NCBI RefSeq assembly: GCF_000297095.1
Contig: NZ_AEEA01000039.1
Location: 1 to 28,796, forward strand
Direction: 5' to 3'
DNA: 28,796 nucleotides
Source: Treponema primitia ZAS-1
GTDB taxonomy: Bacteria > Spirochaetota > Spirochaetia > Treponematales > Breznakiellaceae
Shown: one piece after another, positions 1,110 through 24,146 of the stretch
How positions within the stretch are numbered: the first letter of the stretch is position 1
How the letters are laid out: every line of letters begins with the position of its first letter
Notes under the pieces: model-generated
The model's input: the letters and a program-made list of their open reading frames with translations, nothing else
The model's database searches: none
Told to the model about the DNA's origin: nothing
Made by a program: the position numbers and the translations under genes

Positions 1110-1138
1110 TTGACCGTACCTTTCTTGAATGTTATACT
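1110..1138 (+). promoter_or_regulatory. Sigma70-like promoter for the fdhF(Cys) operon
   Basis: TTGACC (1110-1115), 17-nt spacer, TATACT (1133-1138), about 60 nt upstream of the fdhF ATG. Confidence 0.5.
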
Positions 1139-1197
1139 TTCCGTTACACATGGAAAGAACTTCTATGCGCTATTCCATATACCAGGAGAGGGGTTTT

Positions 1198-3393
1198 ATG
1201 GCAAAAAATTCAGTTAAGGAGATCCAGACAACCTGTTGTTACTGCGGGACAGGCTGCCAACTCCTGTTTACGGTTGATCAGGCTGCCAACAAGATTCTTG
1301 ATGTGCATCCGGTCTGGGGCAGAACCAACGAGGGGACCGCCTGTTTGAAGGGCTGGTACGGATGGGATTATCTGAATGATCCCCAGATCCTGACCAAGCG
1401 CCTGCGGGAACCGATGATTCGCAAAAACGGCAGGAAATCTCCCCTGGAAGTGGTCAGCTGGGATGAGGCTATCAAATTTGTGGCGGATAATTTCAAGCGG
1501 ATCAAAGAAAAGTGGGGGCCCGATTCATTTTTAGGCGCCGCTTCGGCTCGCGGACCGGGAAATGAAGCGGGCTACATTACTCAGAAATTCACCCGGGCGG
1601 TTATGGGGACGAATAATATTGATCACTGCGCCCGTATCTGCCACGCCGCTTCTGTTGCGGGTTCACGGCAGACCATAGGGGAGGGCGCCATGTCCCTGTC
1701 CATTCCGGAGATTGAGGACGCCGAGGTGATCTTCAACATCGGTTATAATGCTGCGGCTTCCCACCCCATCGTAGCCCGGCGCATTGTTAAGGCTAAGGAG
1801 AAGGGCGCCTTCATCATCTGCGCCGATCCCCGGATCACAGAGACCGCCCGTATCTCGGATCTGCATTTGCAGTTAAAGGGCGGATCAAATGTGGCCCTGG
1901 TGAATTCCCTGGCAAATGTTATCATCAGCGAAGATTTAATTGATCATGAATTTGTAAAGGCCCATACCAAGGGCTTTGACGAGTTCTGGGAAGTCGTCAA
2001 GGAATACACCCCCGAATACGCCGCAACAATCACCGGCCTTTCTGCGGAGGATATACGCTTTACCGCCCGGAAGTACGCAAGCTCCAAGCACTCGGTTATC
2101 CTTTGGGGCATGGGTATCACCCAGTTCTCCCAGGGGGTTGAAACGGTTAAATGCTGCTGCAGCCTTGCCATGCTCACCGGAAATTTTGGCCGGCCCAGCT
2201 GCGGTACCGGCCCTGTCCGGGGGCAGAACAATGTGCAGGGTACCTGCGACATGGGGGACCTTCCGGATGTCTATCCGGGTTATCAAAGCGTCACCGACCC
2301 GGAAATACAGGCAAAGTTCGAAAAAGCCTGGGGGGTAAAACTTTCCAATAAAGCAGGCATTCAGCTTACCCGGGTTCCGGAATTTGTTATCCACGAAAAA
2401 GACCCCGCAAAGCGGATCCACGCCTACTATATTACCGGTGAGGATCCGGCCCAGTCGGACCCTGATCTGGAAGAAATCCGGGAGACCCTGGACCAGGTCG
2501 ACTTTGTGGTGGTTCAGGATATTTTCTGGAACAAGACCGCCGAACACGCGGACGCCATCCTGCCGGCCACCGCCTGGGGCGAGCATGACGGTTGTTACAC
2601 CAGTTCCGACCGGGGCTTCCAGCGTATCCGCAAAGTGCTGGAAGGCCAGGGCAATATCTTGCCGGATTGGGAAATTACCTGCCGTATCGCTACGGCCATG
2701 GGCTACCCCATGCACTACAACAATACTGAAGAAATCTGGAACGAGATGATCGATCTCTGTCCCAAGTTTACCGGCGCAACCTATGAAAAAATGGAGCGCC
2801 AGGGCAGCGTTCAATGGCCCTGCTGGGATAAGGGACCCGGGGACAAGGGGACCATGTTCCTCCACAAGGATGGCCGCTTTGCCACCCCGGATGGTATCGG
2901 CATACTAAAGACCTCTCCCTATCATCCGCCCACAGAGGTGGAGAACAAGGAATTCCCCCTTGCCCTGTGTACGGTCCGTGAGGTGGGGCACTATTCGGTG
3001 CGCACCATGACGGGGAATTGCCGTATGCTGCGCAACTTGGAGGATGAGCCCGGCTGGGTCGAAATGTCACCGGAGGATTGCGCCGAGCTGGGTCTCCGTG
3101 AAGGGGAGATCGTAAAGGTCCTTTCCAAGCGGGGCAGTGTCTACACCCGCTGCAAGCCCACCGAGCGGGTAAAGCCGGGGGCGGTGTACATGACCTACCA
3201 GTGGTGGATAGGGGCGTGTAATGAACTGACCATTTCTTCCCTCGATCCTTCCAGTCGTACGCCGGAGTATAAATACTGCGCCGCCCGGGTAGAAAAGATC
3301 AAGGACCAGGCCTGGGCAAAACAAGAGGTTGCCCATATCTATGAGGATATCCGGTCACGGATGCACATTGTAAAAGAGGAGGTTTTAGCATGA
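1198..3393 (+). CDS. fdhF: Formate dehydrogenase H catalytic subunit, cysteine variant (Mo/W-bisPGD enzyme)
   Basis: N-terminal CxxCxxxC 4Fe-4S motif (CCYCGTGCQ). Active-site stretch HCARICHAASVAG has TGC (1639-1641) at the position that is UGA in the paralog at 17921. The start is trimmed to the ATG at 1198 (MAKNSVKEIQTT), which follows AGGAGAGGGG and aligns with the paralog N-terminus. Confidence 0.93.
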   Translation: MAKNSVKEIQTTCCYCGTGCQLLFTVDQAANKILDVHPVWGRTNEGTACLKGWYGWDYLNDPQILTKRLREPMIRKNGRKSPLEVVSWDEAIKFVADNFKRIKEKWGPDSFLGAASARGPGNEAGYITQKFTRAVMGTNNIDHCARICHAASVAGSRQTIGEGAMSLSIPEIEDAEVIFNIGYNAAASHPIVARRIVKAKEKGAFIICADPRITETARISDLHLQLKGGSNVALVNSLANVIISEDLIDHEFVKAHTKGFDEFWEVVKEYTPEYAATITGLSAEDIRFTARKYASSKHSVILWGMGITQFSQGVETVKCCCSLAMLTGNFGRPSCGTGPVRGQNNVQGTCDMGDLPDVYPGYQSVTDPEIQAKFEKAWGVKLSNKAGIQLTRVPEFVIHEKDPAKRIHAYYITGEDPAQSDPDLEEIRETLDQVDFVVVQDIFWNKTAEHADAILPATAWGEHDGCYTSSDRGFQRIRKVLEGQGNILPDWEITCRIATAMGYPMHYNNTEEIWNEMIDLCPKFTGATYEKMERQGSVQWPCWDKGPGDKGTMFLHKDGRFATPDGIGILKTSPYHPPTEVENKEFPLALCTVREVGHYSVRTMTGNCRMLRNLEDEPGWVEMSPEDCAELGLREGEIVKVLSKRGSVYTRCKPTERVKPGAVYMTYQWWIGACNELTISSLDPSSRTPEYKYCAARVEKIKDQAWAKQEVAHIYEDIRSRMHIVKEEVLA

Positions 3394-6195: not shown

Positions 6196-6799
6196 GGATT
6201 CCCCGCCCCTGACCGGCAGCGCCCTGATTTTGGCCGGGGGCCGGGGAACCAGGATCGGTTATGACAAAAAGAAGCTGGAACTGGCCGGGGAGCGGGTGCT
6301 GTCCAGCCTTGCGGAACGGCTGGGGAAACTGTTCAATGAGGTACTCATCTCCTCCAATAACCCTACGGGGTTGATGGATCTCATTACCCTCCCCGACAGC
6401 ATTGGTGAGGGGCCTATGGCGGGCATCTATCAGGGCTTGCTGCGTTGTACCAGCGAGTACCTCTACGTGGTTGCCTGCGATATGCCCTTTATCAATGTTG
6501 ACTACATCGCCTATATGCGGGAACTCCTTGTCCGGGAAGGGCCGGATGTGTGTATTGCCCGCCACGAAAACGGCGACCTGGAACTTTTTAATTCCTTTTA
6601 CAAAAAAAGCTGCGCTGCACCCATGGGGGAAGCCCTGTCCCGGAGTATATACAAGATACGCCTGGCTTTCGATACTCTGAAAGTAACCATGATCGATGAT
6701 GGAACGATACAAAAATTTGATAATGGGGAAATGTTTTTCAACATCAACTATAAGGAAGACCTGGAGCAGGCGGAACGCAGGACCGGGGGGACACTTTGA
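6188..6799 (+). CDS. mobA: Molybdenum cofactor guanylyltransferase (MobA-like)
   Basis: LILAGGRGTRIGYDKKKL nucleotide-binding motif, GPMAGIYQGL, and VVACDMPFI. A GTG start overlaps the hydA stop by 8 nt. Confidence 0.8.
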   Translation: MNEDSPPLTGSALILAGGRGTRIGYDKKKLELAGERVLSSLAERLGKLFNEVLISSNNPTGLMDLITLPDSIGEGPMAGIYQGLLRCTSEYLYVVACDMPFINVDYIAYMRELLVREGPDVCIARHENGDLELFNSFYKKSCAAPMGEALSRSIYKIRLAFDTLKVTMIDDGTIQKFDNGEMFFNINYKEDLEQAERRTGGTL

Positions 6800-6823
6800 C
6801 CGCCGCAAGGTGCAGCGGATTTT
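6800..6823 (+). terminator. Possible intrinsic terminator after mobA
   Basis: CCGCCGC (6800-6806) / GCAGCGG (6812-6818) stem with one mismatch, 5-nt loop, then ATTTT. It lies in the convergent gap with the activase gene. Confidence 0.35.
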
Positions 6824-6840
6824 CCCGCGCAGTATTCCTA

Positions 6841-8793: not shown

Positions 8794-8939
8794 TGTTACA
8801 TTGCTCCCTTTCGGACCGATGGGTTTACATGATTTTTTGATAGACTATCGGGAATAGTACATGCTGTCAAGCCTCGGTGGGGTTTTGTTCAGTTTTGTTC
8901 CATCATGTTTTATTTTTAGACTTTTGGATAGTACGGAAC

Positions 8940-8968
8940 TTTACATAAGCAGTTTTATCCCCTACAAT
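8940..8968 (+). promoter_or_regulatory. Sigma70-like promoter for selAB
   Basis: TTTACA (8940-8945), 17-nt spacer, TACAAT (8963-8968). A second TACAATA copy lies 10 bp downstream at 8973-8979. Confidence 0.45.
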
Positions 8969-8989
8969 ATCTTACAATAAGGAATGATT

Positions 8990-10492
8990 ATGACACTTTC
9001 CGATGCAAACGCTTTGCTGCGGTCCATCCCGGCAATGGATGACCTGCTTAACGCGCCATGGGCCGCCGAATTTTCCAGCTCTCTGGGCAGGGAAAATGTA
9101 AAAAAAATAATAGAAGAGACTCTGGATGAAATAAGGCGTGAAATAGGCGCGGGGAACTCTCCGACTAAAGTCGGCGTTACAAGCGGTGGTGTAAAGGCCG
9201 GCCTGCCGGTGGAAGAGCTTGTGGTGATCCGCGCGACAACCCTGCTCCGTTTAAAATCGTCGAGCACCCTGAAACCAGTGGTCAATGCCACCGGGGTAGT
9301 CATTCACACAAACCTCGGCCGCGCCCCTCTTGCCGATGAAGCGATTGCTGCGGTCAATGAAATAGCGGGAACCTATAGTACCCTGGAATATGATCCCGGA
9401 AAAGGCGGACGGGGTGGGCGCAATGTTCATGTTGAGTGGCTTCTCTGCCGCCTGACCGGTGCAGAAGCGGCGCTGGTGGTCAACAACAATGCTGCCGCAG
9501 TTCTCTTGGCGCTGTCGGCGACAGCCTCCGGCCGGGAGCTCATCGTCTCCTCCGGGGAACTCGTTGAAATAGGCGACTCCTTCAGAATCCCGGAAATACT
9601 TTCCTTTTCGGGTGCGAAAATGATCGCGGTGGGCTGCACCAATTCTACGCGCATAAGCGACTACCGCAATGCAATCACGGAAAACACCGCTGTGCTGCTT
9701 AAAGTACACCCTTCAAACTACAGGATAGAGGGTTTTGTCAAAACCACGGCCCGCGAAGAACTGGCGGAACTCGCCGCTGAGCGGGGACTGGTGTTTATGG
9801 AGGATCTCGGCAGCGGACTCCTCGGCCTACTTGGGGTGCCCGGTCCGCTTGGAGCGGATTTGGCAAACCGGGAATGTTCAGTCCGGAATTGTCTGGAAGC
9901 AGGCTCCGGCATCGTAACGTTTTCCGGGGACAAATTGCTCGGCGGCCCTCAGATTGGGGTGATTGCCGGGTCAAAGAAGCTTATAGACAAGATGAAGTCC
10001 CACCAACTGCTCCGGGCCCTGCGGGTAGATAAAATGACCCTGGCGGCTTTCGAGGCGACTCTCCGGCTCCATCTCTCGGGCAGGCAGGGAAGCATACCGG
10101 TAATCGGGATGATCGAAACGGACAAACCCGCCCTTCTCGAAATGGCCCGCCGTCTCTGCCGCATGTTGAAACGTACCGCTGCTTGCAACGCAGTTCCCCG
10201 CACAGTAAATCCTGGCGCCGGCGATTTCACCATTGCTGTCGTGGAGACGGAAGACGCCATAGGGGGCGGCTCTTTCCCCACCGACCTGCTTCCCGGTTTC
10301 GGTGTGGCCATAAGCTCGCCTTCATTCAGCGCAGAAACATTGGCGGCGGGACTGCGGACCGCATTTGTCCCGGTGATCCCGGCTATCCGTGAAGGTCGGG
10401 TGATCCTCCACGTCCGTACCCTTTTGCCCGGGGATGAGAAATTAATTGCCGCCTCATTCGTGTCTGCCCTTAGCAGGGATGTGGCTGGGTAA
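8990..10492 (+). CDS. selA: L-seryl-tRNA(Sec) selenium transferase
   Basis: VIHTNLGRAPL and the PLP-lysine motif FSGDKLLGGPQ. The ORF opens at the ATG at 8984, but the ATG at 8990 has better spacing from AAGGA, so the start is ambiguous by 2 codons. Confidence 0.9.
   Translation: MTLSDANALLRSIPAMDDLLNAPWAAEFSSSLGRENVKKIIEETLDEIRREIGAGNSPTKVGVTSGGVKAGLPVEELVVIRATTLLRLKSSSTLKPVVNATGVVIHTNLGRAPLADEAIAAVNEIAGTYSTLEYDPGKGGRGGRNVHVEWLLCRLTGAEAALVVNNNAAAVLLALSATASGRELIVSSGELVEIGDSFRIPEILSFSGAKMIAVGCTNSTRISDYRNAITENTAVLLKVHPSNYRIEGFVKTTAREELAELAAERGLVFMEDLGSGLLGLLGVPGPLGADLANRECSVRNCLEAGSGIVTFSGDKLLGGPQIGVIAGSKKLIDKMKSHQLLRALRVDKMTLAAFEATLRLHLSGRQGSIPVIGMIETDKPALLEMARRLCRMLKRTAACNAVPRTVNPGAGDFTIAVVETEDAIGGGSFPTDLLPGFGVAISSPSFSAETLAAGLRTAFVPVIPAIREGRVILHVRTLLPGDEKLIAASFVSALSRDVAG
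9146..9178 (+). repeat. 33-bp codon-aligned repeat copy A, encoding GAGNSPTKVGV inside selA
   Basis: GGCGCGGGGAACTCTCCGACTAAAGTCGGCGTT is identical to the reverse complement of 13117-13149. It contains the small palindrome CCGAC-TAAA-GTCGG. Confidence 0.95.
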
Positions 10493-10493
10493 G

Positions 10494-12452
10494 ATGGAGG
10501 AGTATCCTTTCATATTGGGGACAGCCGGGCATATCGACCATGGCAAAACAGCCCTTGTGCGCGCCATGACCGGCATTGACTGTGACCGCCTTGATGAAGA
10601 AAAACGCCGGGGTATAACCATCGAACTCGGATTTGCCCCCTTGAATTTGCCCAACGGTAAGACCGTCAGCATCGTTGATGTTCCCGGACACGAACGCTTC
10701 ATACGGACAATGGCCGCAGGCGCCGCCGGCATGGATGCCGCCATGCTGGTAATAGCGGCAACCGAAGGGGTCATGCCCCAGACCAGGGAGCATCTTGATA
10801 TTCTGAATATTCTTGGAGTTAGATTCGGCCTCGTGGCGTTGACAAAGAAAGATTTGGCGGATGATGAAACCCTTGAACTGGCAACTGCGGAGGTGGTCGA
10901 ATTAACCCGGGGGACCTGTCTTGATGGAGCGCCGATCATACCGGTTTCATCGGTAACGGGCGAAGGTGTTTCACGCATCGTGGAGGAAATAGAAAAGATA
11001 ATTGATAAAATACCCCCCAGAGATGGCCGGGGCGCATTTTTCCTCCCCATTGACCGGGTCTTCAGCAAAAAAGGCTTCGGAAGCGTGGTAACCGGGACAT
11101 CCTATCAGGGGAGTATTTCCGAGGGCGATGAAGTGGAAATAATGCCTTCAGGTGTGGGAGGAAGGGTGCGTTCCCTCCAGACACATGGAGCGAAAGTCAG
11201 TTCCGCTACCGCTGGGCAGCGGGTAGCCGTTAACCTGGCCGGCATTTCCCATGACCAAATAGAGCGGGGAGCCGCGGTCTGCGAAAAAGGGGCTTTCGTT
11301 GCCACCGACTGCATAAGCGCATGGCTTGATATATTGCCTTCCGCGCATGAAGGCGTGGCCCACTGGCAGCGGGTACGGTTCCATGTGGGGACAACTGATG
11401 TGGTCGCCAGAATATCGCTTCTGCGATTGAACGCTGATATGAAAAAATCAGGCATACTTCCGGGAAACAGCGGACCGGTGCAGCTTTTGTGCGAATCAAA
11501 AATAACGGTTGCAGCCGGACAAAGGTTTGTGATACGTTTTTACAGCCCCCTCATTACCATAGGCGGCGGGCGGGTTATGCTGCCCAACGCCGAACTGGCG
11601 CGGGGCAAAGCGGATCGGGAAGCTAAAGCCAGGATAGTTGAAGGCCTTGCCGCCGACTTCAGCCCCGTCACCCTGCTTGCGGCAATTATCCATGATAAAG
11701 GAATTCTCAGCGTATCCGGCCTATCCGAGCTTTCCCAGATGGGCAAGGACCCCTTTACTGAGTCTTTAAGCGTACTGTCCTCAACACCGGACACATACGG
11801 ATTTTTGGAATTCGGGACCCCGCAGAATTTTATCTCCAGCGAAGCCTTCGACACGGTAACCCGATCAGCCCTGCGTATTCTCCATGAGTTCCATACAAAA
11901 TCCCCCGAACTCTCCGGGCTGGATGCAGAAAAACTATTTACATCCCTGGATAGCGTTCACGGCTCAGGCCTGGTTAAAGTCGGGGATTTCAAAGTCCTCA
12001 TCGACATAATGGCGGCAAGAAATGCTATAACCCCGGTCGCCGTGCAGGGGAAAACCTGTTACCGGGCGGCGGATTACCGCCAATCCGTGGATAGCAAATT
12101 GATGGATCTTGCGGGACGTATCAGGGATGAGATCGCATCTGCGGGCTTCAATCTTTTAAAACTGCCGGAACTGGAAGAAAAACTGGGCGCCACATCTTCC
12201 GATATGAAACGAGCGGCAGCATATCTGCGGGAACAAGACGATCTCAGGACGATAGAAGGGGGTCTGCTGTTTTCCCGGGAGATGCGGGATAAACTGCTTA
12301 AGGCGCTTTCTTCGATGAGCGGCGATATAACGGTTGCTTCTTTACGGGATTCCATCGGTGTGAATAGGAAAGAAAGCCTCGCGATGCTGGACTTTCTGGA
12401 CTCCCAGGGATTGACGAAGCGGGTCGGGGATACGCGGGTGCTTGTGGGGTAG
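10494..12452 (+). CDS. selB: Selenocysteine-specific translation elongation factor
   Basis: GTPase motifs GTAGHIDHGKT, DVPGHERF and TKKD, with a long C-terminal winged-helix-type extension. The ATG is 1 nt after the selA stop; the longer ORF start at 10446 lies inside selA. Confidence 0.9.
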   Translation: MEEYPFILGTAGHIDHGKTALVRAMTGIDCDRLDEEKRRGITIELGFAPLNLPNGKTVSIVDVPGHERFIRTMAAGAAGMDAAMLVIAATEGVMPQTREHLDILNILGVRFGLVALTKKDLADDETLELATAEVVELTRGTCLDGAPIIPVSSVTGEGVSRIVEEIEKIIDKIPPRDGRGAFFLPIDRVFSKKGFGSVVTGTSYQGSISEGDEVEIMPSGVGGRVRSLQTHGAKVSSATAGQRVAVNLAGISHDQIERGAAVCEKGAFVATDCISAWLDILPSAHEGVAHWQRVRFHVGTTDVVARISLLRLNADMKKSGILPGNSGPVQLLCESKITVAAGQRFVIRFYSPLITIGGGRVMLPNAELARGKADREAKARIVEGLAADFSPVTLLAAIIHDKGILSVSGLSELSQMGKDPFTESLSVLSSTPDTYGFLEFGTPQNFISSEAFDTVTRSALRILHEFHTKSPELSGLDAEKLFTSLDSVHGSGLVKVGDFKVLIDIMAARNAITPVAVQGKTCYRAADYRQSVDSKLMDLAGRIRDEIASAGFNLLKLPELEEKLGATSSDMKRAAAYLREQDDLRTIEGGLLFSREMRDKLLKALSSMSGDITVASLRDSIGVNRKESLAMLDFLDSQGLTKRVGDTRVLVG

Positions 12453-12540
12453 ATCGAATCTGATAGCTGGCCATTTACACAAAATTTCTGATAGTCCTAA
12501 TATCCCGCTGTTGTAATCCGTGGGAAAGTTTAACCTTCCC

Positions 12541-13710
12541 CTACACCCCATCCAGCGCCTCAAGTATCGCGTCAATATCCCCGTTGCTTGTTCTGCTCCC
12601 AAAGCTGAAGCGGATCGTCCCCCCCGGAAATGTTCCGGCGGTCCGGTGTGCCAAGGGTGAGCAGTGCAGCCCGCTGCGGGTAATTATGCTGTGGTTCTCA
12701 AACAGAAACCGTGAGACCTCTCCGGCATCGTGTCCTGGGATAGCAACTGAAACGACGGATACGCAGCGATCCGGATCAAGGGTCCCGCAGACGGCAATCT
12801 TTTTTATTTGTCCCAGCCCCGCTATAAAACGCGCCGTGGAAGCGCGTTCACGCTCCCGTATCGTTTCAACTCCTGTGCGCAAAATCTCCTCCACCGATGC
12901 GGCAAGGCTTAAGATGCCTATGGTGTTTTGTGTACCCGGCTCGAACTTGTCCGGCATGAACTCAGGCATGTCCAAGGATTGGGACACGCTGCCGGTACCG
13001 CCGCTTATCCATGGTCGCATCTGCCCTGCAGCCGCTTCTCCAATGACAAACCCTCCTGTGCCCGCAAGGCCCCGCAGCCCCTTATGGCCCGCAAACGCAA
13101 CAACATCGCTATTTGCAACGCCGACTTTAGTCGGAGAGTTCCCCGCGCCGTAATCTTCCATGGTAAACGGTAGGACGCCACCGGTCTGGGCCATGTCCAG
13201 GATGGTCAGGACGCCGTATTCATGGGCAATCCTAAAACATTCCGTTACGGGTAATATCGTACCAAGGACATTTGACGCATGGGTCATGACGAGCAGTCTT
13301 GTGTTTTTCCGTATTGCACCGCGGATTTTTTCAGGGTCCAGTGAACCATCCGGATCGCATTGGAGCCACTCAAGTTCTATCACACCATTTTTGCGGAGCG
13401 CTTCAAGTGGGCGGGCCGCCGCGTTGTGTTCCACGCTCGTGGACAGCACGTGATCCCCCTCTCTGACAAGGCCGTTTATAGCCATGTTCAGGGATTGTGT
13501 GGCGCCGCTGGTGAATATCACCCGCAGGGGATCGGCTACCCCAAGGAGCTTTGCTACAGCCCTACGGGCCCTCAGGGCAATGGCCCCTGCCTCCAGGCCT
13601 TCAAAATTCCGTCCGGCGTTGAGATGCGTCTCCCCTAAATATCCGTGCAGTTCTTGAACTACCACCGGGGATAATGCAGGAGAAGTGGCGGCGTAATTTG
13701 CGTATATCAT
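12541..13710 (-). CDS. Class-V aminotransferase-fold cysteine desulfurase / probable selenocysteine lyase
   Basis: PLP-lysine context AFAGHKGLRGLAGTGG and catalytic-Cys loop RSGLHCSPLAH. It is the last gene of the selC-DUF3343-selD-yedF string. Confidence 0.8.
   Translation of the reverse strand: MIYANYAATSPALSPVVVQELHGYLGETHLNAGRNFEGLEAGAIALRARRAVAKLLGVADPLRVIFTSGATQSLNMAINGLVREGDHVLSTSVEHNAAARPLEALRKNGVIELEWLQCDPDGSLDPEKIRGAIRKNTRLLVMTHASNVLGTILPVTECFRIAHEYGVLTILDMAQTGGVLPFTMEDYGAGNSPTKVGVANSDVVAFAGHKGLRGLAGTGGFVIGEAAAGQMRPWISGGTGSVSQSLDMPEFMPDKFEPGTQNTIGILSLAASVEEILRTGVETIRERERASTARFIAGLGQIKKIAVCGTLDPDRCVSVVSVAIPGHDAGEVSRFLFENHSIITRSGLHCSPLAHRTAGTFPGGTIRFSFGSRTSNGDIDAILEALDGV
13117..13149 (-). 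repeat. 33-bp codon-aligned repeat copy B, encoding GAGNSPTKVGV inside the desulfurase gene
   Basis: The reverse complement is identical to 9146-9178. It is in-frame on the coding (-) strand, just upstream of the PLP-lysine region. Confidence 0.95.
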
Positions 13711-14374: not shown

Positions 14375-15439
14375 TTATCTGAATAGTATCACCTTTCCCG
14401 CCCTCGGCGCAACTTCCCCTATGATTGCGGCGTGTTCATCCCCGGCTTCCCTGATGCGGGCAGTAAGCGTCTCTGCCTCGTCGGGGGGCACGGCTATCAA
14501 AAGTCCTCCGGATGTCTGGGGATCGAATAACAGTTCCTGGGTGGCAAAGGGGAGCGCGCTTACATCGGCGTATTTGCTTCCACGGTTGCGGTTACGCTGG
14601 CCCGCGGCGGTCAGCAGATATTCGTTTGCATAGGTTACTGCCTCCGGGATAAGGGGCAAGGCATCGGGGTACAGTAGTATTGCCGCCTGATCCCCCGCCA
14701 TCTCCAGGGCATGGACAAGCAGCCCGAAACCGGTAACATCCGTACAGGCGCTTACGTTAAAACCCGCCATGCTCTCACAGGCATAGCGGTTGAGCCGCTC
14801 CATGGAGGCTATGGCCTGCCGAACCGCCCCCTCACCGGCCATCTCAACCCGCAGAGCAGCCATCACAATCCCTACGCCCAGGGGTTTGGTCAATATTATT
14901 TTATGCCCAATCTTTGGGGTGTTGTTGCGTATCACCTTTGCTGTCTCGACCATGCCGGTGACGGCCAGCCCATACTTTGGCTCCCTGTCGTATATAGAGT
15001 GTCCACCGCCCAAGACGGCCCCTGCCTCTGCGATTTTCTCCGCACCTCCAGCCAGTATATCTGCGAGGACACTTTTCTCCATGGCCTCGGGAAAACATAC
15101 CAGGTTCAGCGCCACCATGGGTTTGCCGCCCATGGCCCATACATCGCTCAAGGCGTTTGCGGCAGCGATACGCCCAAAGGTACGGGCATCGTCGACCATA
15201 GGGGGGAAAAAGTCCGCAGTAAAGATAAGCGAGTTTTTCTCATCAAGCATATAAACTGCGGCATCATCGGAAGTGTCGTAGCCGACCAGCAGTCGTTTGT
15301 CGCCGCTTGCAGGCAGCCCCGCCAACAGGCGGGCAAGCCCATCGCTTTCTATCTTCGCCCCGCATCCACCGCTTGTGCAGGAGGACAGTAGTCCTTTTGA
15401 CAGCAGGGACTCAGTGTTCTTACCCATCCCTTCCTCCAT
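14375..15439 (-). CDS. selD: Selenide, water dikinase (selenophosphate synthetase), Cys-type
   Basis: N-terminal glycine-rich loop TSGGCGAKI, with Cys rather than Sec at the catalytic position, and a PurM-like body. The start could instead be the ATG at 15427 (MGKNTE). Confidence 0.9.
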   Translation of the reverse strand: MEEGMGKNTESLLSKGLLSSCTSGGCGAKIESDGLARLLAGLPASGDKRLLVGYDTSDDAAVYMLDEKNSLIFTADFFPPMVDDARTFGRIAAANALSDVWAMGGKPMVALNLVCFPEAMEKSVLADILAGGAEKIAEAGAVLGGGHSIYDREPKYGLAVTGMVETAKVIRNNTPKIGHKIILTKPLGVGIVMAALRVEMAGEGAVRQAIASMERLNRYACESMAGFNVSACTDVTGFGLLVHALEMAGDQAAILLYPDALPLIPEAVTYANEYLLTAAGQRNRNRGSKYADVSALPFATQELLFDPQTSGGLLIAVPPDEAETLTARIREAGDEHAAIIGEVAPRAGKVILFR

Positions 15440-15707
15440 CCGCCCCGTTTATACCGATCTTCCTGTATCCATCCCCGGATTTCTCCCAGGCCTCTTTTAT
15501 AGCAAGTCCCCGCTCCGACAGAAACGAGGCGGCCCGTTCCAGATCTTCCGGTACAAACCTGAGGCAAAAACCGCATCCCGTTCGTATGCCCGCAGGCATG
15601 GGCATGACCCGGACATAAAACCCCTGCTCCACCAACGCCTGCTCCGCCATAATGGCCTGGGTGACACTATCGAAACCGATGATTAGTTCTTTGCTGTTAC
15701 TTTCCAT
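15420..15707 (-). CDS. DUF3343-like small protein (putative Se/S carrier)
   Basis: 95 aa counted from MESNSKELIIGFDS, with a conserved-looking GCGFCLRF. The listed ORF extends to 15893, but that extension runs through the tRNA-Sec gene, so I trimmed the start to the ATG at 15705-15707. Confidence 0.65.
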   Translation of the reverse strand: MESNSKELIIGFDSVTQAIMAEQALVEQGFYVRVMPMPAGIRTGCGFCLRFVPEDLERAASFLSERGLAIKEAWEKSGDGYRKIGINGADGGRDG

Positions 15708-15758
15708 GCGAGCTGCTATCGTACGGGGTAATGGGCTGCGCTTTTGACAACAAAAAAA

Positions 15759-15852
15759 TGGCGGAGGCGTGTGAGAATCGAACTCACCAAGGACGTTTCC
15801 ACCCTTTGACGGATTTGAAGTCCGCAGCCGCCACCAGGCGACATTCACCTCC
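15759..15852 (-). tRNA. selC: tRNA-Sec (anticodon UCA)
   Basis: The 94-nt reverse complement is GGAGGTGAATGTCGCCTGGTGGCGGCTGCGGACTTCAAATCCGTCAAAGGGTGGAAACGTCCTTGGTGAGTTCGATTCTCACACGCCTCCGCCA. It has a long acceptor stem, a 6-bp D-stem with 4-nt loop (GTCGCC-TGGT-GGCGGC), anticodon loop CTTCAAA, a long variable arm, T-arm GTGAG-TTCGATT-CTCAC, and an encoded CCA. Confidence 0.9.
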
Positions 15853-15860
15853 ACAGAATA

Positions 15861-15889
15861 ATGATAAGATTGTGAAGCTTTGTTGTCAA
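15861..15889 (-). promoter_or_regulatory. Sigma70-like promoter for selC
   Basis: On the minus strand: TTGACA (15884-15889), 17-nt spacer, TATCAT (15861-15866). The -10 ends 8 nt before the mature tRNA 5' end. Confidence 0.6.
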
Positions 15890-15975
15890 TCACGGCGGTG
15901 GAAACTACGGATCGGAGCTCGGAAACCCTTTTTCGGGATATTAAACCGGGTATATTAATTTTTTTTGGAAAATGC

Positions 15976-17419: not shown

Positions 17420-17448
17420 TTGAGTTTTTCCAGTTCCCATAGTATTCT
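17420..17448 (+). promoter_or_regulatory. Candidate promoter for fdhF(Sec)
   Basis: TTGAGT (17420-17425), 17-nt spacer, TATTCT (17443-17448), 40 nt upstream of the ATG. Confidence 0.4.
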
Positions 17449-17488
17449 GTTAAGTATAAAAGCGTTAAACCTCATAGGAGGAGAAGAA

Positions 17489-19681
17489 ATGGCGGTAAAA
17501 GAAATCCAGACCACCTGTGCGTACTGCGGAGCGGGGTGCCAGCTATTGTTTACGGTAGACCAGGATGTGAACAAGATCCTTGATGTGCATCCTGTTCAGG
17601 GCAGAACCAACGAAGGCACGGCCTGTTTGAAAGGCTGGTACGGGTGGGATTACCTCAATGACCCCCAGATTATCTCTAAAAGGCTCGCCAAGCCCATGAT
17701 TCGCAAGGGCGGTAAAAATAGTCCCCTGGAAGAGGTAGAATGGGACGAAGCCATTGCCTATACGGCGGGCCGGCTCATGGAAATTAAGGAAAAATACGGC
17801 CCCAACGCCATCATGGGCACCGGTTCGGCCCGGGGCTCGGGCAACGAGTCCAACTATATCATGCAGAAATTTATGCGCGCAGCGGTGGGCACCAACAATG
17901 TCGACCACTGCGCGCGGATATGACACGCTCCTTCTGTAGCGGGTCTACAGTATTCACTAGGTTCAGGCGCCATGACCATGGGAGTGCCTGAAATAGAAGA
18001 TGCAGCTCTTTTGTTTGTTTTCGGCTATAACGGCGCTGATTCTCACCCCATAGTCGCTCGCCGCATTGTGCGCGCCAAGGAAAAGGGCGCCAAGATAATC
18101 TGCGTCGATCCCCGGATCATAGAGACCGCCCGTATTGCGGACATGCATCTCCAGCTTAAAGGCGGCTCAAACCTGCTGCTGGTCAACGCTCTGGCCAATG
18201 TTATCTTGGAAGAAGGGCTCTGTGATTATGACTTTATCGAAAAACACGCCAATGGATTCGACGAGTTTAAGGAAATTGTAAAGAAATATACCCCCGAAGG
18301 CGTGGCTGCCCAGACCCAGATCTCCGCCGAGGATATCAGAAAGGCCGCCCGGATGTATGCCGCCAGCGGACGTTCCATGATCCTGTACGGCATGGGGGTC
18401 TGCCAGTTCGGGCAGGCCGTGGACGTGGTCAAGGGTTTGGCCAACCTGGCCATCATGACCGGCAACCTGGGCCGTCCCTCCACGGGCATCGGCCCGGTGC
18501 GGGGCCAGAACAACGTGCAGGGCGCCTGCGATATGGGGGCCTTGCCCAATGTCTATCCGGGCTACCAGAGCGTCACCGTCCCGGCGATACAGGAAAAATT
18601 CGAAAAAGCCTGGGGGGTCAAACTGTCCGATAAGCCTGGCATTACCCTGACCGTGGTGCCCCACCATGTGCTGCACGAAACCGACCCTGCAAAACAGATC
18701 CACGCCTATTACATAATGGGGGAGGACCCGGTCCAATCCGACCCGGATTCGACGGAAGTGCGGGAGTCTCTGGAGAAATGCGACTTCGTGGTTATGCAGG
18801 ACATTTATATGAACAAAACCGGCCAGTACGCCGATGTTCTTCTGCCGGCCACGGGCTGGTGCGAGCATGACTCGGTTTTCTCCTGCTGCGACCGGGGCTT
18901 TCAGAAGGCCCGCAAGGTCATCGAGCCTTCGGGGGATGTGAAGAACGACTGGGAAATCATCAGCCTGATTTCTACGGCCATGGGCTACCCCATGAAGTAT
19001 AACAACACCGTAGAAATCTGGAACGAGCTGATCGAACTCTGCCCCAGTTTCGCCGGCGCCACCGACGAGAAGCTTGAAAGGAACCTCTCCATCCAGTGGC
19101 CCTGCCGGGACAAGGCAGCGAGCGATTTGGGTACGGTCTACCTGCACAGGGGCGGCAAATTCGCCAACGCCGACGGCAAGGCCAACTTTTTCGCCACCGA
19201 ATGGCGGCCGCCTCAGGAAGTGGAAAACAAAGAGTATCCCCTCACCCTGTGTACGGTCCGCGAAGTGGGCCACTATTCGGTGCGCACCATGACCGGTAAC
19301 TGCCGGACCCTCCGCAACCTTGAGGATGAGCCGGGCTGGGTACAGATTTCGGCGAGGGATGCGGAAAAGCTTGGCATAAAACACCAAGAGCTTGTCAGGA
19401 TAAGCTCAAAACGCGGCTCCGTTATTACCCGGGCCAATATTACCTCCCGGGTCAAGAAGGGCGCCGTGTACATGACCTACCAGTGGTGGGTCGGCGCCTG
19501 TAACGAACTGACGAATAGTTCCCTTGACCCCATAAGCAAGACCCCGGAGTACAAGTACTGCGCCTGCAAGGTGGAAAGGCTTCCGGATCAAAAAGCGGCC
19601 TGGGACGCGGTGAACAAGACCTTGGCGGATTTGAGAAACAAGATGTTCATCAGCGTTGAACGGGAGGGTGTCTCGGGGTAA
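17489..19681 (+). CDS. fdhF: Formate dehydrogenase H catalytic subunit, selenocysteine variant (UGA at 17921-17923 decoded as Sec)
   Basis: ORFs 17420-17923 and 17972-19681 share one frame and are separated only by a single TGA. Read through, the sequence is HCARI-U-HAPSVAGLQYSLGSGAMTMGVPEIEDA, colinear with HCARICHAASVAG... of the paralog at 1198. The N-terminus MAVKEIQTTCAYCGAGCQ follows GGAGGAG. Confidence 0.92.
17921..17923 (+). other. In-frame UGA selenocysteine codon of fdhF(Sec)
   Basis: It aligns with the catalytic Cys codon (TGC, 1639-1641) of the paralog. The full sel machinery is encoded within 10 kb. Confidence 0.9.
17934..17950 (+). promoter_or_regulatory. Bacterial SECIS-like hairpin
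   Basis: CTGTAG-CGGGT-CTACAG: 6-bp stem and 5-nt G/U-containing loop, beginning 10 nt after the UGA. This is the usual position for a bacterial SECIS. Confidence 0.7.
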
Positions 19682-21185: not shown

Positions 21186-22649
21186 TTGCCGGAAAATGGA
21201 GATTGGGAGCCTGCCCAATACCGGGTAACAAACAAACTGCTGGAACGGCTTAATATCCGCATCAGTTATATTGACGTCCCTGGGATAAAGGGGGCGCCGC
21301 TAAGTTTTTCCTACCGGGCCATGCGGGGTGAGTACTGTATCTACATTGACCGGAAAGCAGATAGGCCGACTTTTATGGCCCGGGATCTCCACGAGAAAGG
21401 GCATATCCTCTACAACCACTTTAACCGGCCCAGGGCGCACCGCCAGCAGTTTGAAGAATTTTTCCGGCGCAACCTCCACAGTTTTCTTGCGCGCCTTCCT
21501 CCGGAGCGGAACTTAAACTCCAAGCTGGGTACCTATTCTACGTATATCTACAACCGTTTTTCTGACATAGCCCAGGCCATGGAGATAAATACCAAGCTTT
21601 TCAAAGAGGATCGTAAGGTGTTGCAAGTTGCGCGGGAAACTTCGCTGCAAAATACGCCCGGCGGTCCTCTGGAGGGATTCATCTTCCCCCGGGAGACGTG
21701 GCCCGAGGGACTGGACTGGATGAGCTATATGAGCTTCCTCTGCACCGAGCTGAACTTCTTTCTGGACCATATAGGGGACGGGCCGGGCAAAAAAATTAAG
21801 TCGAGCGACGTCAGCGCCTATAACGCCATGCAGGCCGTTGAACGGCGTATACAGGATATCCAGGAAACCCGAAAGACCGCTGCGGATGCGGACAGCAACG
21901 CCGCCTACGAACCGGAAGTCATCAGGCACGGCAGGACCGATAATTATACCGATACCAAGACGGTCAACACCGTTACGGAATTAAACGATGTTAAGGACCT
22001 GGTACGAATACTGCGGGAACGGAGCCTCCTCCTTAAGCGGAACCGGCTCCACACGGACATTCTCTATAATATTAACCGTAATCGGTTTGGGGATATCCTC
22101 ATCCCCCGGCGTTACCGCATTGAAAACTACAACCTGAACAACCTGTGTATACTGCTGGATGTGTCCGGCAGCGTTCCTCCGGGCTTTGTTAAGCGGGTTA
22201 TCCAAACCATTATGCGTGCCGAAGGAGCCTTTTACAAAGGCGCCTTTAACAAACACCTGAGCCGCCTGGTCTGCTGGTCCGACAGCCTTTGTTCCGATAC
22301 CTCCTTGGCGGACATTGGCGCCATAACCTTAGGCGGGGGTACCGTGTTGGGTGCAGGTATCGAATACTGTAAACAGTACCTCAACGAGCGGTCCAGTTTC
22401 TTTATCATCAGCGATTTCCAGGATGACCTTAACGACTGGATCAGCGCCGCCCGAGACCTGGGCTGCCAAAAAACCGCCGTGGGATACGGCCGATTTGGCC
22501 GGGATACCTCGTTTGAACGGTGGTTTTCCGCCATAGGTTCCAATGCGGACTACCGTAAGAACCCCGTGGACATACGACGTTTTGTGTCGGTGTTTAACAC
22601 GGTGCTGCTGCGGGATGATGTGGTACAGCGGGAGGGCTTGACCGGGTAA
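21186..22649 (+). CDS. Putative zinc metallopeptidase (HExxH) fused to a C-terminal von Willebrand factor A domain
   Basis: The N-domain carries DLHEKGHILYNH. The C-domain has MIDAS-type residues ILLDVSGSV (DxSxS), LGGGTV and FIISDFQDD. A TTG start lies 11 nt after the upstream stop, preceded by AGGA. The architecture resembles Pfam DUF2201_N + DUF2201 from memory. Confidence 0.7.
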   Translation: MPENGDWEPAQYRVTNKLLERLNIRISYIDVPGIKGAPLSFSYRAMRGEYCIYIDRKADRPTFMARDLHEKGHILYNHFNRPRAHRQQFEEFFRRNLHSFLARLPPERNLNSKLGTYSTYIYNRFSDIAQAMEINTKLFKEDRKVLQVARETSLQNTPGGPLEGFIFPRETWPEGLDWMSYMSFLCTELNFFLDHIGDGPGKKIKSSDVSAYNAMQAVERRIQDIQETRKTAADADSNAAYEPEVIRHGRTDNYTDTKTVNTVTELNDVKDLVRILRERSLLLKRNRLHTDILYNINRNRFGDILIPRRYRIENYNLNNLCILLDVSGSVPPGFVKRVIQTIMRAEGAFYKGAFNKHLSRLVCWSDSLCSDTSLADIGAITLGGGTVLGAGIEYCKQYLNERSSFFIISDFQDDLNDWISAARDLGCQKTAVGYGRFGRDTSFERWFSAIGSNADYRKNPVDIRRFVSVFNTVLLRDDVVQREGLTG

Positions 22650-22661
22650 GGTAAATTGTTT

Positions 22662-22723
22662 ATACTTTAGTGTATTACGATACAGTGTAATATGATACAC
22701 TATATCATATTACACTAAAGTAT
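22662..22723. repeat. 62-bp imperfect palindrome carrying four AGTGTA/TACACT half-sites
   Basis: Symmetric about 22692/22693. Outer arms are ATACTTTAGTGTA (22662-22674) / TACACTAAAGTAT (22711-22723). Inner arms are AGTGTAATATGAT (22684-22696) / ATCATATTACACT (22704-22716). About 26 of 31 positions pair overall. It lies 13 nt upstream of the ATPase ATG. Confidence 0.9.
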
Positions 22724-22736
22724 CCGGAGGCGTAGG

Positions 22737-24146
22737 ATGTTTGTGGGAAGAAAACGGGAACTGGAAGCTCTGGAAAAGCAATATGCCGGGAACGATTTTG
22801 AATTTGCGGTCATATACGGACGCCGGAGGGTGGGAAAAACATCCCTCATAGTTGAATTTATTAAGGATAAGCCGGCGGTATTTTTTACCGGCCGGGAAAC
22901 CAACCTGGCGGAAAATCTGGTGCTGCTCAGTGGGAGTATTCAGGCCTCCCGGTTTGGGGTAGAAAAGGCGCCGGTTTATCAGTCTATCGACGATGCCCTG
23001 GACCGGGTCTTCAGCGCCGCTGATGGCAAGCGGCTTATCTTTGTGATTGACGAGTACCCCTACCTGGCAGGGGCTTGGCGGGGAATATCTTCGACCCTCC
23101 AGGAAAAGATCGATCACCGTTCAAAAAAATGCAGGCTTTTTTTAATCCTCTGCGGATCATCCCTTTCCTTTATGGAAAACCAGGTGCTGGGGTACCAAAG
23201 TCCTCTGTACGGAAGACGAACCGCTCAGTATAAGATTGAGCCCTTTGATTTTTTTGAGGCCGGAGAATTTTTTCCCAACCTAAACAGCCAGGACAGCGCC
23301 GCTATCTATGCCATGGCCGGGGGTATTCCCTCATACCTGAACCGGTTTATCGGCTCTGCACCCCTCAAAGAAAAGGTGATCGCCAACTTCCTTAGTCCCC
23401 AGGGTTTTCTTTTTGAGGAGCCGGAAAATCTCCTGAAACAGGAACTGCGGGATCCGGCGAACTACAACGCCCTTATTCGGGAGATTGCCCGTGGAGCAAC
23501 CCGGGTTTCGGAGATCGCCTCTAAAACAGGTCTGGAAACCGGCGTAGCAAGCCACTACCTTGATACCCTCATACAGCTGGGAATTGTTGAACGGGAAATG
23601 CCCGTCACCGAGGAGGTTCAGGGAAAAACCCGCGGCAGGAAATCGCTCTACACGGTTAAGGATAATCTTTTCTGTTTTTGGTACCGATTTATCCCCGGCA
23701 TTATTGATATTATTCAGCATAACAACACGGAGAAAGCCTGGGACTTTATTGCCGAAGGGTTCAGCGCCTACATGGGCAGGGTATTTGAAGAAATTTGCCG
23801 ACAGTATCTCTGGCGGGAAAACACTGCAGGCAGACTACCCTTCTTTTTTCAGCAGGAGGGCCGCTGGTGGGGACATGATCCATTGCAGAAAATGGAATCC
23901 AAAATCGACATCCTGGCAATTCAGGGCAAGACCCATGCGCTGTTCTGCGAATGCAAGTGGAGAAACGAAGGAACCGGCAGGGACGTCCTTGAAGCCCTGT
24001 TACAAAAAGCGGATCATTTCCGGTTTGAACAGAAATACTACATCCTTTTTTCAAAGAGCCCCTTTACCGTGGGATGCAAAAAACTAGCCGCAGAGAGGGG
24101 GGGTGTCAGGCTGCTTAGCTTTAGGGAGATGAACGTAAACCGCTGA
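22737..24146 (+). CDS. P-loop ATPase (archaeal-ATPase/DUF234 family) with internal winged-helix and C-terminal PD-(D/E)xK-like module
   Basis: Walker A IYGRRRVGKTS, Walker B LIFVIDEYPYL, and wHTH-like REIARGATRVSEIASKTGLETGVASHYLDTLIQLGIVE. The C-terminal IDILAI...LFCECKW fits a D...ExK nuclease core. GGAGG lies 6 nt before the ATG. Confidence 0.75.
   Translation: MFVGRKRELEALEKQYAGNDFEFAVIYGRRRVGKTSLIVEFIKDKPAVFFTGRETNLAENLVLLSGSIQASRFGVEKAPVYQSIDDALDRVFSAADGKRLIFVIDEYPYLAGAWRGISSTLQEKIDHRSKKCRLFLILCGSSLSFMENQVLGYQSPLYGRRTAQYKIEPFDFFEAGEFFPNLNSQDSAAIYAMAGGIPSYLNRFIGSAPLKEKVIANFLSPQGFLFEEPENLLKQELRDPANYNALIREIARGATRVSEIASKTGLETGVASHYLDTLIQLGIVEREMPVTEEVQGKTRGRKSLYTVKDNLFCFWYRFIPGIIDIIQHNNTEKAWDFIAEGFSAYMGRVFEEICRQYLWRENTAGRLPFFFQQEGRWWGHDPLQKMESKIDILAIQGKTHALFCECKWRNEGTGRDVLEALLQKADHFRFEQKYYILFSKSPFTVGCKKLAAERGGVRLLSFREMNVNR

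Follow-up and report, generated by a model that had tools for sequence, protein, structure and literature searches.

Two enzymes of bacterial selenium metabolism, encoded by convergent genes, share eleven residues written in exactly the same DNA, and the question raised by this locus is whether the shared segment reflects a common function or the spread of something that has no particular business with selenium. The locus lies in a 28,796-nt stretch of Treponema primitia ZAS-1 (contig NZ_AEEA01000039.1, positions 1–28,796; the whole of this stretch is referred to here as the window, and ZAS-1 as the window strain). The genes are selA, which encodes L-seryl-tRNA(Sec) selenium transferase (8984–10492, plus strand), and a gene encoding an SclA-like class V pyridoxal phosphate (PLP) desulfurase / selenocysteine lyase (12541–13710, minus strand; referred to as sclA). 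We consider it likely that both segments belong to a modular palindromic repeat specific to T. primitia, and that the sclA element was recently copied into selA and tolerated there in a disordered loop. The repeat family appears to be undescribed.

A modular repeat in selA and sclA

The 33-mer GGCGCGGGGAACTCTCCGACTAAAGTCGGCGTT has exactly two matches in the window, at 9146–9178 on the plus strand (selA) and at 13117–13149 on the minus strand (sclA), and these are identical at 33 of 33 positions. It did not occur once across 100 dinucleotide shuffles of the window, and the identity is real and far from chance. As originally predicted, and as our sequence search confirmed, both copies lie in sense orientation, begin on a codon boundary and encode GAGNSPTKVGV (SelA residues 55–65 and desulfurase residues 188–198), and the mini-palindrome CCGAC-TAAA-GTCGG is present within the segment. 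The suggestion that the flanking sequences are unrelated was only partly borne out: a repeat finder lengthens the pair to 37 nt with one mismatch, the desulfurase copy continues past the 33-mer into a right arm (GTTGCAAATAGCG), and selA retains GTTACA of that arm.

The repeat is built from three modules. These are L ([T/A]GCGCGGGGAACTT[G/C], 15 nt), C (CCGACTAAAGTCGG[C/T], 15 nt), which holds the hairpin core CCGAC-TAAA-GTCGG and is at times doubled, and R (GTTGCAAGT, 9 nt), which is followed by the AGCGC of the next L. L and R together make 24-nt tandem units and C makes 15-nt units (in T. primitia ZAS-2, the nearest relative, the periods given by Tandem Repeats Finder are 24 and 15), the arms are partly complementary (GCGC/GCGC and ACTTGC/GCAAGT), and the consensus R–L junction reads GCAAGTAGCGCGGGG, which contains GTAG. 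Copies are 24–45 nt in size and correspond to 8–15 amino acids. The selA insert (site 1, 9146–9181, plus strand) is a 36-nt in-frame addition of 12 codons (GAGNSPTKVGVT, SelA residues 55–66) consisting of L (9146–9160), C (9161–9175) and a truncated R (9176–9181). The sclA copy (13106–13149, minus strand) is a full L-C-R (L 13135–13149, C 13120–13134, R plus tail 13106–13119) and encodes GAGNSPTKVGVANS directly before the AFAGHK motif. Sites in the window were located by matching the three modules, by blastn-short and by a hidden Markov model (HMM) made from six copies, so that the strongest HMM matches include the training copies; nhmmer scored selA site 1 at E = 3e-13 and the sclA copy at E = 1e-15.

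There are five repeat sites in the window and four in the syntenic ZAS-2 locus (L001/L004, 21 kb from CP001843.1, mismatch-tolerant search), and the HMM recovers these same sites at E-values between 1e-15 and 0.4, the latter for the two arm-only window copies. A second copy in selA (site 2, 10176–10204, minus strand) is an antisense L-R without the core (TGTGCGGGGAACTGC GTTGCAAGCAGCGG) and contributes about eight SelA residues, CNAVPRTV, at about residues 400–407; its ZAS-2 ortholog is an antisense L-C-R that is 15 nt longer (approximately codons 387–401), and the position is a gap in the closest orthologs and holds unrelated extra residues in a few more distant ones. An R-L-R' copy (21620–21653, plus strand) adds LQVARETS to the product of an unrelated gene (21186–22649), which has no Pfam match and lies downstream of an AAA_5/MoxR-like gene, and these residues are missing from the ZAS-2 ortholog. 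A degenerate copy (6781–6831, minus strand) has L (TGCGCGGGAAAATCC) and R (GCTGCACCT) followed by decayed sequence, and spans the 3' end of an NTP_transf_3 gene and the spacer ahead of a BcrAD-type ATPase gene; at the same place, ZAS-2 has a 108-nt array at the end of its NTP-transferase gene. The ZAS-2 sclA element is L-R'-L-C-R, orthologous to the window copy, 24 nt longer and with three substitutions, and a further ZAS-2 copy with a doubled core is found at the start of an ATP-binding cassette (ABC) transporter gene. Selenium genes are therefore not the only hosts: four of the five window copies lie inside open reading frames (ORFs) and the fifth overlaps the 3' end of a gene, and the family as a whole occurs in coding loops, in four frames, and in gene-end and spacer DNA. 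At selA site 1 and in gene 21186–22649 the window strain has a copy where ZAS-2 has none, and at selA site 2 and in sclA both strains have one that the closest other species lack.

Where the two strains differ at a site, they do so by entire modules, with a difference of 36 nt for selA site 1, 15 nt for selA site 2, and 24 nt for each of sclA and gene 21186–22649. All of these lengths are multiples of three, which keeps the reading frames intact. Four of the six frames of the consensus are open, and each of the four is found translated, with GAGNSPTKVGV in sclA and selA site 1 (frame F1), LQVARETS in gene 21186–22649 (frame F2), ATCNTDFSRQVPCA in selA site 2 (a reverse frame), and ATPTLVG at the annotated ABC-transporter start (the other reverse frame). 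That both periods are multiples of three would happen by chance about once in nine, and open frames are not rare, so we take this as suggestive and not as proof of adaptation.

The annotation of ZAS-2 is affected at two places. The annotated start of its ABC-transporter ATPase falls inside the repeat copy and is probably over-extended, and an annotated 39-aa ORF (L001 1054–1173) is composed wholly of repeat units. The transporter gene belongs to a 2.7-kb amino-acid ABC-transporter operon (L001 3098–5860) located between a double-cubane reductase gene and selA, and the window strain does not have this operon at the corresponding place (8794–8983).

Beyond these two strains, no copy was found in 76 kb from five related termite Treponema loci (L005–L009), where the best HMM match had E = 1.8. 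The element matches no Rfam family, whether at the gathering threshold or at E ≤ 1, and it was not found in viral contigs, plasmids or phages; our literature search found neither the core sequence nor a link between T. primitia and palindromic repeats. A protein search using the concatenated element peptides of the four open frames (E ≤ 10) returned only 39 candidates, none of them scoring, and as it missed the known carriers too it is uninformative. The 20-mer TCTCCGACTAAAGTCGGCGT gave one unrelated match each in the genome and metagenome collections, with flanks unlike the element (about one chance match is expected in the genome scan), though this 20-mer is specific to the sclA variant (TCTCC vs the family TTGCC) and these scans are uninformative on the abundance of the family. 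The two matches, in a Bryobacteraceae metagenome-assembled genome (L002 3465–3484) and in L003 (1636–1655, just downstream of a gene), have 22 nt in common (TCTCCGACTAAAGTCGGCGTCA), and because their flanks differ from the Treponema element they are probably chance or an unrelated hairpin. We also note that the desulfurase loop of a T. primitia relative (P0123, L008 4257–5414) reads GAT TAC GGC GCA GGT AGC GAT GTT at the site of the element. This resembles fused element ends (the start of L plus the tail of R), and may be either a decayed copy or an element-like target as it was before insertion.

Age of the two copies and a proposed route of copying

The two copies of the 33-mer differ in their distribution among orthologs, and this bears on which of them came first. 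Among the 60 best SelA sequences, the site 1 insert is found only in the SelA of the window, and ZAS-2 and 58 other orthologs are without it; ZAS-2 reads EIRREI|NGGTT where the window strain reads EIRREI|GAGNSPTKVGVT|SGGVK, a difference of 12 codons. The ZAS-2 desulfurase has the segment at the same place (GAGNSMVSSAENSPTKVGVVNSD), and most other desulfurase orthologs pass directly from E-D-C/Y to D-V-x-A-F-A-G-H-K. The original prediction that the segment is an insertion relative to relatives in both genes holds in ortholog alignments and against solved structures, where the desulfurase has about 12 extra residues at the insertion site. The alignments divide the two inserts, as that in selA is specific to the strain and that in the desulfurase is old and shared with ZAS-2. 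The sclA copy thus predates the split between the window strain and ZAS-2, there being an orthologous copy in ZAS-2 sclA, and the selA site 1 copy arose afterwards.

Sequence variants point to the direction of transfer. A 5' G (not A/T) and CTCT (CTTG in the family) occur only in the sclA copies of both strains and in selA site 1, which also has the window-strain sclA allele at position 30 (C30). Members of the family are not usually identical: the ZAS-2 selA and ZAS-2 sclA copies differ at 5 of 33 positions, and the window strain and ZAS-2 are only 86–88% identical in the selA and sclA genes, so the 33/33 match implies a recent event. These data are most simply explained if the element of sclA, 3.9 kb distant and inverted, was recently copied to selA site 1; selA carries variants of the donor lineage and the sclA copy is older than the selA copy, as such a transfer from donor to recipient would leave them. 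Recent copying, which had been proposed originally as one of four possibilities, thus accounts for the perfect identity, with the desulfurase copy ancestral and the selA copy specific to the strain. An alternative is that selA received an independent insertion that was later homogenised by conversion with the sclA copy.

The receiving sites appear to be places where additional residues do little harm. AlphaFold models built with about 50 orthologs each had a mean predicted local distance difference test (pLDDT) score of 76.7 for SelA and 82.4 for SclA. In the SelA model, the site 1 insert begins at the last residue of a helix (residues 36–55) and continues into coil (residues 56–75, with pLDDT < 50 at 64–72), and site 2 falls in coil of low pLDDT (residues 402–415), and in the SclA model residues 186–198 are coil with pLDDT < 50. 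All three of the coding copies tested are therefore modelled as coil with pLDDT mostly below 50–55, and the insertion positions vary in length among orthologs. SelA site 1 lies in the N-terminal domain, upstream of the alignment with the Aquifex aeolicus core. These models suggest that the inserted peptides occupy structurally permissive surface loops.

We propose that the sclA element was copied over 3.9 kb in inverted orientation into selA, where it entered a variable loop with which the SelA N-terminal domain ends. Template switching during replication or short-patch ectopic conversion would be the likeliest route, and either could have been seeded by the short homeology that the target shares with the element ends (AAATA(A)GCG(G/A)TG is found both around the selA target and at the right end of the donor); transposition by a hairpin-specific single-strand transposase would be a less likely route. 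The copy would then have persisted because the 12 added residues form a flexible, stop-free loop, and its effect on selenocysteine synthesis is most likely neutral. Template switching and ectopic conversion, as in quasipalindrome-associated mutation, would fit a nearby, opposite-strand, hairpin-forming donor and a short copy without long flanking homology. Classical template switches span tens to hundreds of bases, whereas the distance here is 3.9 kb and the same sequence has been copied repeatedly. For a transposase, the only hint is a weak lead, namely that TTAC or ATAC directly precedes the L arm at three sites independent of one another. The selA insertion has also created a direct near-repeat where its left end joins the gene, at 9127–9149 (TGAAATAAGGCG / TGAAATAGGCG; GAAATA-(A)GGCG), in which the first four inserted bases (GGCG) mimic the sequence that follows the GAAATA upstream, perhaps as a trace of how the copy was made, or else by chance.

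Several results weigh against a mobile palindromic repeat and a recent copy of it in selA. The selA copy consists of L-C plus only a truncated R (GTTACA), and to obtain its GTTACA|AGC junction by a single template-switch path one has to assume that 3 further nucleotides were lost and that a G changed to A. Hairpin stability compared with shuffles is only moderate in consensus-like copies (z of -1.7 and -2.8) and nil in the two 33-mer copies (z from -0.3 to +0.2). A comparison of filled and empty sites shows no target-site duplication at selA site 1 (at most a 1-nt ambiguity, A) or at 21620, no terminal inverted repeats were found for the element, and no transposase, including Y1/RAYT, was found among the genes of the 28.8-kb window. 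All of the copies that we have seen, in both strains, cluster in some 20 kb at a single locus, and the selA insertion is seen in one assembly only, whose contig is the sole one to encode this exact SelA in the public protein collection.

Known repeats and rival explanations

The T. primitia element can be compared with several known kinds of short repeat. The repetitive extragenic palindromes (REPs) of proteobacteria are imperfect palindromes of 20–40 nt which form mosaic clusters, are marked by GTAG, are extragenic by definition and are linked to RAYT, a Y1 transposase (REPIN-RAYT systems). Like these and the bacterial interspersed mosaic elements (BIMEs), the T. primitia repeat is short and imperfectly palindromic, is species-specific and makes no target-site duplication. 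Its copies form mosaic or tandem clusters in ZAS-2, and the right arm of its consensus contains GTAG, which may or may not act here as it does in REPs. It differs in not being extragenic, as four of five window copies lie in ORFs, and in having module periods that are multiples of three. Two other classes were rejected, integron attC sites (checked by eye) because the element is not long enough and its arms depart from RYYYAAC/GTTRRRY, and miniature inverted-repeat transposable elements derived from DDE transposons as neither terminal inverted repeats nor target-site duplications were found.

Closer to the coding copies are palindromic repeats inserted in frame within ORFs, which are reviewed in PMC10969869. 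As that review summarises the Rickettsia palindromic elements (RPEs; Ogata et al. 2000, 2002), they are about 100–150 bp in length with a conserved peptide of 30–50 aa. On this summary, both the RPEs and the T. primitia repeat are species- or genus-restricted palindromic repeats placed in frame in unrelated genes where they add a fold-compatible peptide, and both are also found in non-coding DNA and show lineage-specific presence and absence. The T. primitia modules differ in being only 9–15 nt (24–45 nt and 8–15 aa per copy), mosaic or tandem, and translated in four frames, and in having a termite-gut spirochete as host; given the difference in size (24–45 nt vs about 150), sequence homology to RPE families is unlikely. 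Among the small mobile sequences of enterobacteria (Delihas 2007, cited in PMC10969869), enterobacterial repetitive intergenic consensus (ERIC) sequences are about 127 bp with terminal inverted repeats; they are normally intergenic, and intragenic cases are rare exceptions. These cases resemble the T. primitia element as small repeats found inside genes as in-frame additions that make new peptide segments, but in the region we sampled the intragenic copies of the T. primitia element are the majority. An in-frame insertion element analogous to the RPEs was the first of the four original possibilities and fits best, as the 33-mer belongs to a modular, imperfectly palindromic repeat that two T. 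primitia strains carry at several sites, some coding and some not, and that is present or absent at a given site depending on the strain. We regard the repeat as selfish or neutral DNA, probably neutral, tolerated in protein loops in an RPE-like or REP-like manner.

The same pair of sequences might be explained without a repeat family at all, as a one-off templated insertion or gene conversion that moved 33–36 nt of sclA into selA with no mobility involved. The clear polarity between donor and recipient, the inverted donor just 3.9 kb away, the lack of a target-site duplication and the truncated right side of the copy are all agreeable to this. It does not predict repeated events with this particular sequence, however, and we think it improbable, since the copied sequence belongs to a family with at least nine sites in two strains (among them tandem, antisense and arm-only forms, as well as sites in a spacer and in unrelated genes) and matches with nhmmer E-values down to 6e-16 are unlikely to be chance; the other copies largely refute it. 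An artefact, with one copy produced by mis-assembly of the draft, might be suspected from the single public contig carrying this exact SelA and from the window being a 28.8-kb draft contig. We give it very little credence, as the insert is an exact multiple of three, keeps the ORF open, falls in a loop of variable length and is bordered on either side by unbroken unique sequence, mis-assembly does not normally give a 36-nt internal insertion, and analogous module-sized differences are present in the finished ZAS-2 genome.

Functional readings fare no better. If GAGNSPTKVGV were a surface tag docking both enzymes to a common selenium partner (SelD, YedF or DUF3343), one would expect what is seen in the window, namely the same 11 residues in the same frame in two enzymes of one pathway and in loops predicted to be exposed and flexible. 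Yet the SelA of ZAS-2 and 58 other SelA orthologs function without the segment, the desulfurase loop of ZAS-2 differs (SAENSPTKVGV plus eight extra residues) and most orthologs lack the loop, and the same DNA is present in other frames (SelA site 2 and gene 21186–22649) and in non-coding sequence. The shared frame is itself expected in about one quarter of surviving insertions because only four of six frames are open, and with the low-confidence loops this leaves a docking peptide highly unlikely. Much the same can be said of a nucleic-acid recognition site, either an operator or a site for SelB resembling a selenocysteine insertion sequence (SECIS), that co-regulates the convergent selAB and sclA-yedF-selD units. 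The 33-mer forms a small hairpin in both transcription units, and there is a precedent in the autoregulation of Escherichia coli selAB through a SECIS-like element. Against this, shuffled sequences fold just as stably (z from -0.3 to +0.2), the hairpin is unlike the CUGUAG-CGGGU-CUACAG of fdhF in the same window and has no Rfam match, and the sequence is missing from ZAS-2 at selA site 1 and present in unrelated contexts. We hold out scant likelihood for a shared regulatory site in general, and reject a SECIS-like or SelB site in particular as there is also no UGA. Both functional readings were among the original possibilities, along with the caution that copies in random contexts would deprive the segment of selenium-specific meaning, and as repeat copies do occur in non-selenium contexts, there is no such meaning by that reasoning.

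A more elaborate suggestion is that the inverted pair is a recombination substrate, and that inversion of 9179–13116 would produce in-frame SelA-N/SclA-C and SclA-N/SelA-C chimeras, turning selenocysteine synthesis off and leaving the Cys-type fdhF to take over. The genes are convergent and the segments in the same frame, their 33 bp of perfect inverted identity come close to the shortest length that RecA can use, and the window has both fdhF-Sec and fdhF-Cys. There is, however, no evidence of the inverted isomer, ZAS-2 does not have the arrangement, the chimeras would lose essential parts, and the pair is more simply a by-product of repeat spread; we consider this suggestion extremely improbable.

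Going beyond the spread of a neutral repeat, T. primitia may hold an active family of 'frame-neutral' micro-elements that colonise and remodel protein surface loops as well as spacers, with copies seeded by their neighbours and possibly moved by a Y1/RAYT-like, hairpin-specific single-strand enzyme acting at TTAC-like sites. It would be the modules of 15 and 24 nt, both divisible by three and readable in four of six frames, that made this possible. We find this doubtful, but were it true, selA and sclA would be a rare donor and recipient pair caught in the act, with the empty site kept in the sister strain.

The reading we prefer, of a T. primitia repeat recently copied from sclA to selA, removes a tempting but wrong interpretation, that of a shared selenium-specific motif, and replaces it with the spread of short palindromic repeats into loop-coding DNA of a free-living spirochete of the termite gut. 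The best-known palindromic repeats inserted in frame are those of Rickettsia, which are obligate intracellular bacteria. The finding is not surprising in principle; a much smaller and modular version in Treponema would widen both the range of hosts and the ways in which such DNA is known to shape proteins. With the donor, the recipient and the empty orthologous site all in hand, the copying mechanism can be studied directly. Such repeats also cause annotation artefacts, as in the 39-aa ORF and the probably extended ABC-transporter start of ZAS-2, and spurious 'shared motifs' between unrelated proteins.

Host genes and the selenium cluster

The original identification of the two host genes holds. 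SelA matches TIGR00474 (E = 9e-147), and its gene hosts two repeat copies; the desulfurase, whose gene hosts the putative donor copy, matches the SclA model NF040779 at E = 1e-139 and 465.5 bits, which is under the model cutoff of 525 bits, and TIGR01977 at 377.4 bits, barely over the 377-bit cutoff. The nearest relatives of both proteins are from ZAS-2 (SelA 85% and desulfurase 88% identical). The two had been thought to have different folds, which was not correct, as both are fold-type I PLP enzymes and there is a weak SelA Pfam match on the desulfurase. The insertion positions are nevertheless non-homologous, being in the N-terminal domain of SelA and in the loop preceding the PLP lysine of the desulfurase.

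The neighbours of selA and sclA are selB, yedF, selD, the gene of a DUF3343 carrier and selC. The tRNA-Sec gene (selC, 15759–15852, minus strand, anticodon TCA, Rfam 77.8 bits) is just upstream of the DUF3343 carrier gene, and as the mechanically called ORF at 15420–15893 overruns selC, the real carrier gene must be shorter (it encodes 98 aa in ZAS-2). We rejected derivation of the repeat from tRNA-Sec as the anticodon arm of selC (GCGGACTTCAAATCCGT) differs from the core. Two formate dehydrogenase H paralogues are also found in the window (1129–3393 and 17420–19681; 70–78% identical DNA), one with Cys (HCARICHAASVAG) and the other with an in-frame TGA at 17921–17923 (HCARI*HAPSVAG) followed by the SECIS-looking hairpin CUGUAG-CGGGU-CUACAG (17921–17960), and these agree with the published fdhF-Cys / fdhF-Sec pair of T. 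primitia (PMC3892789).

Other features were noted in the window and in the related loci. A 28-nt inverted repeat (22662–22723, 89% complementary with a 6-nt spacer, and AT-rich) lies between gene 21186–22649 and an ATPase_2/DUF234 gene (22737–24146), and could be a terminator or operator. In two related termite Treponema, restriction-modification genes are found directly 3' of selA (L007 5066–8857 and L005 11756–14448), with N6_Mtase/Eco57I/Methylase_S in one set and MmeI-like plus Type_ISP_C fragments in the other. Those of L007 stand between selA and selB, and L005 has several DDE transposase fragments as well.

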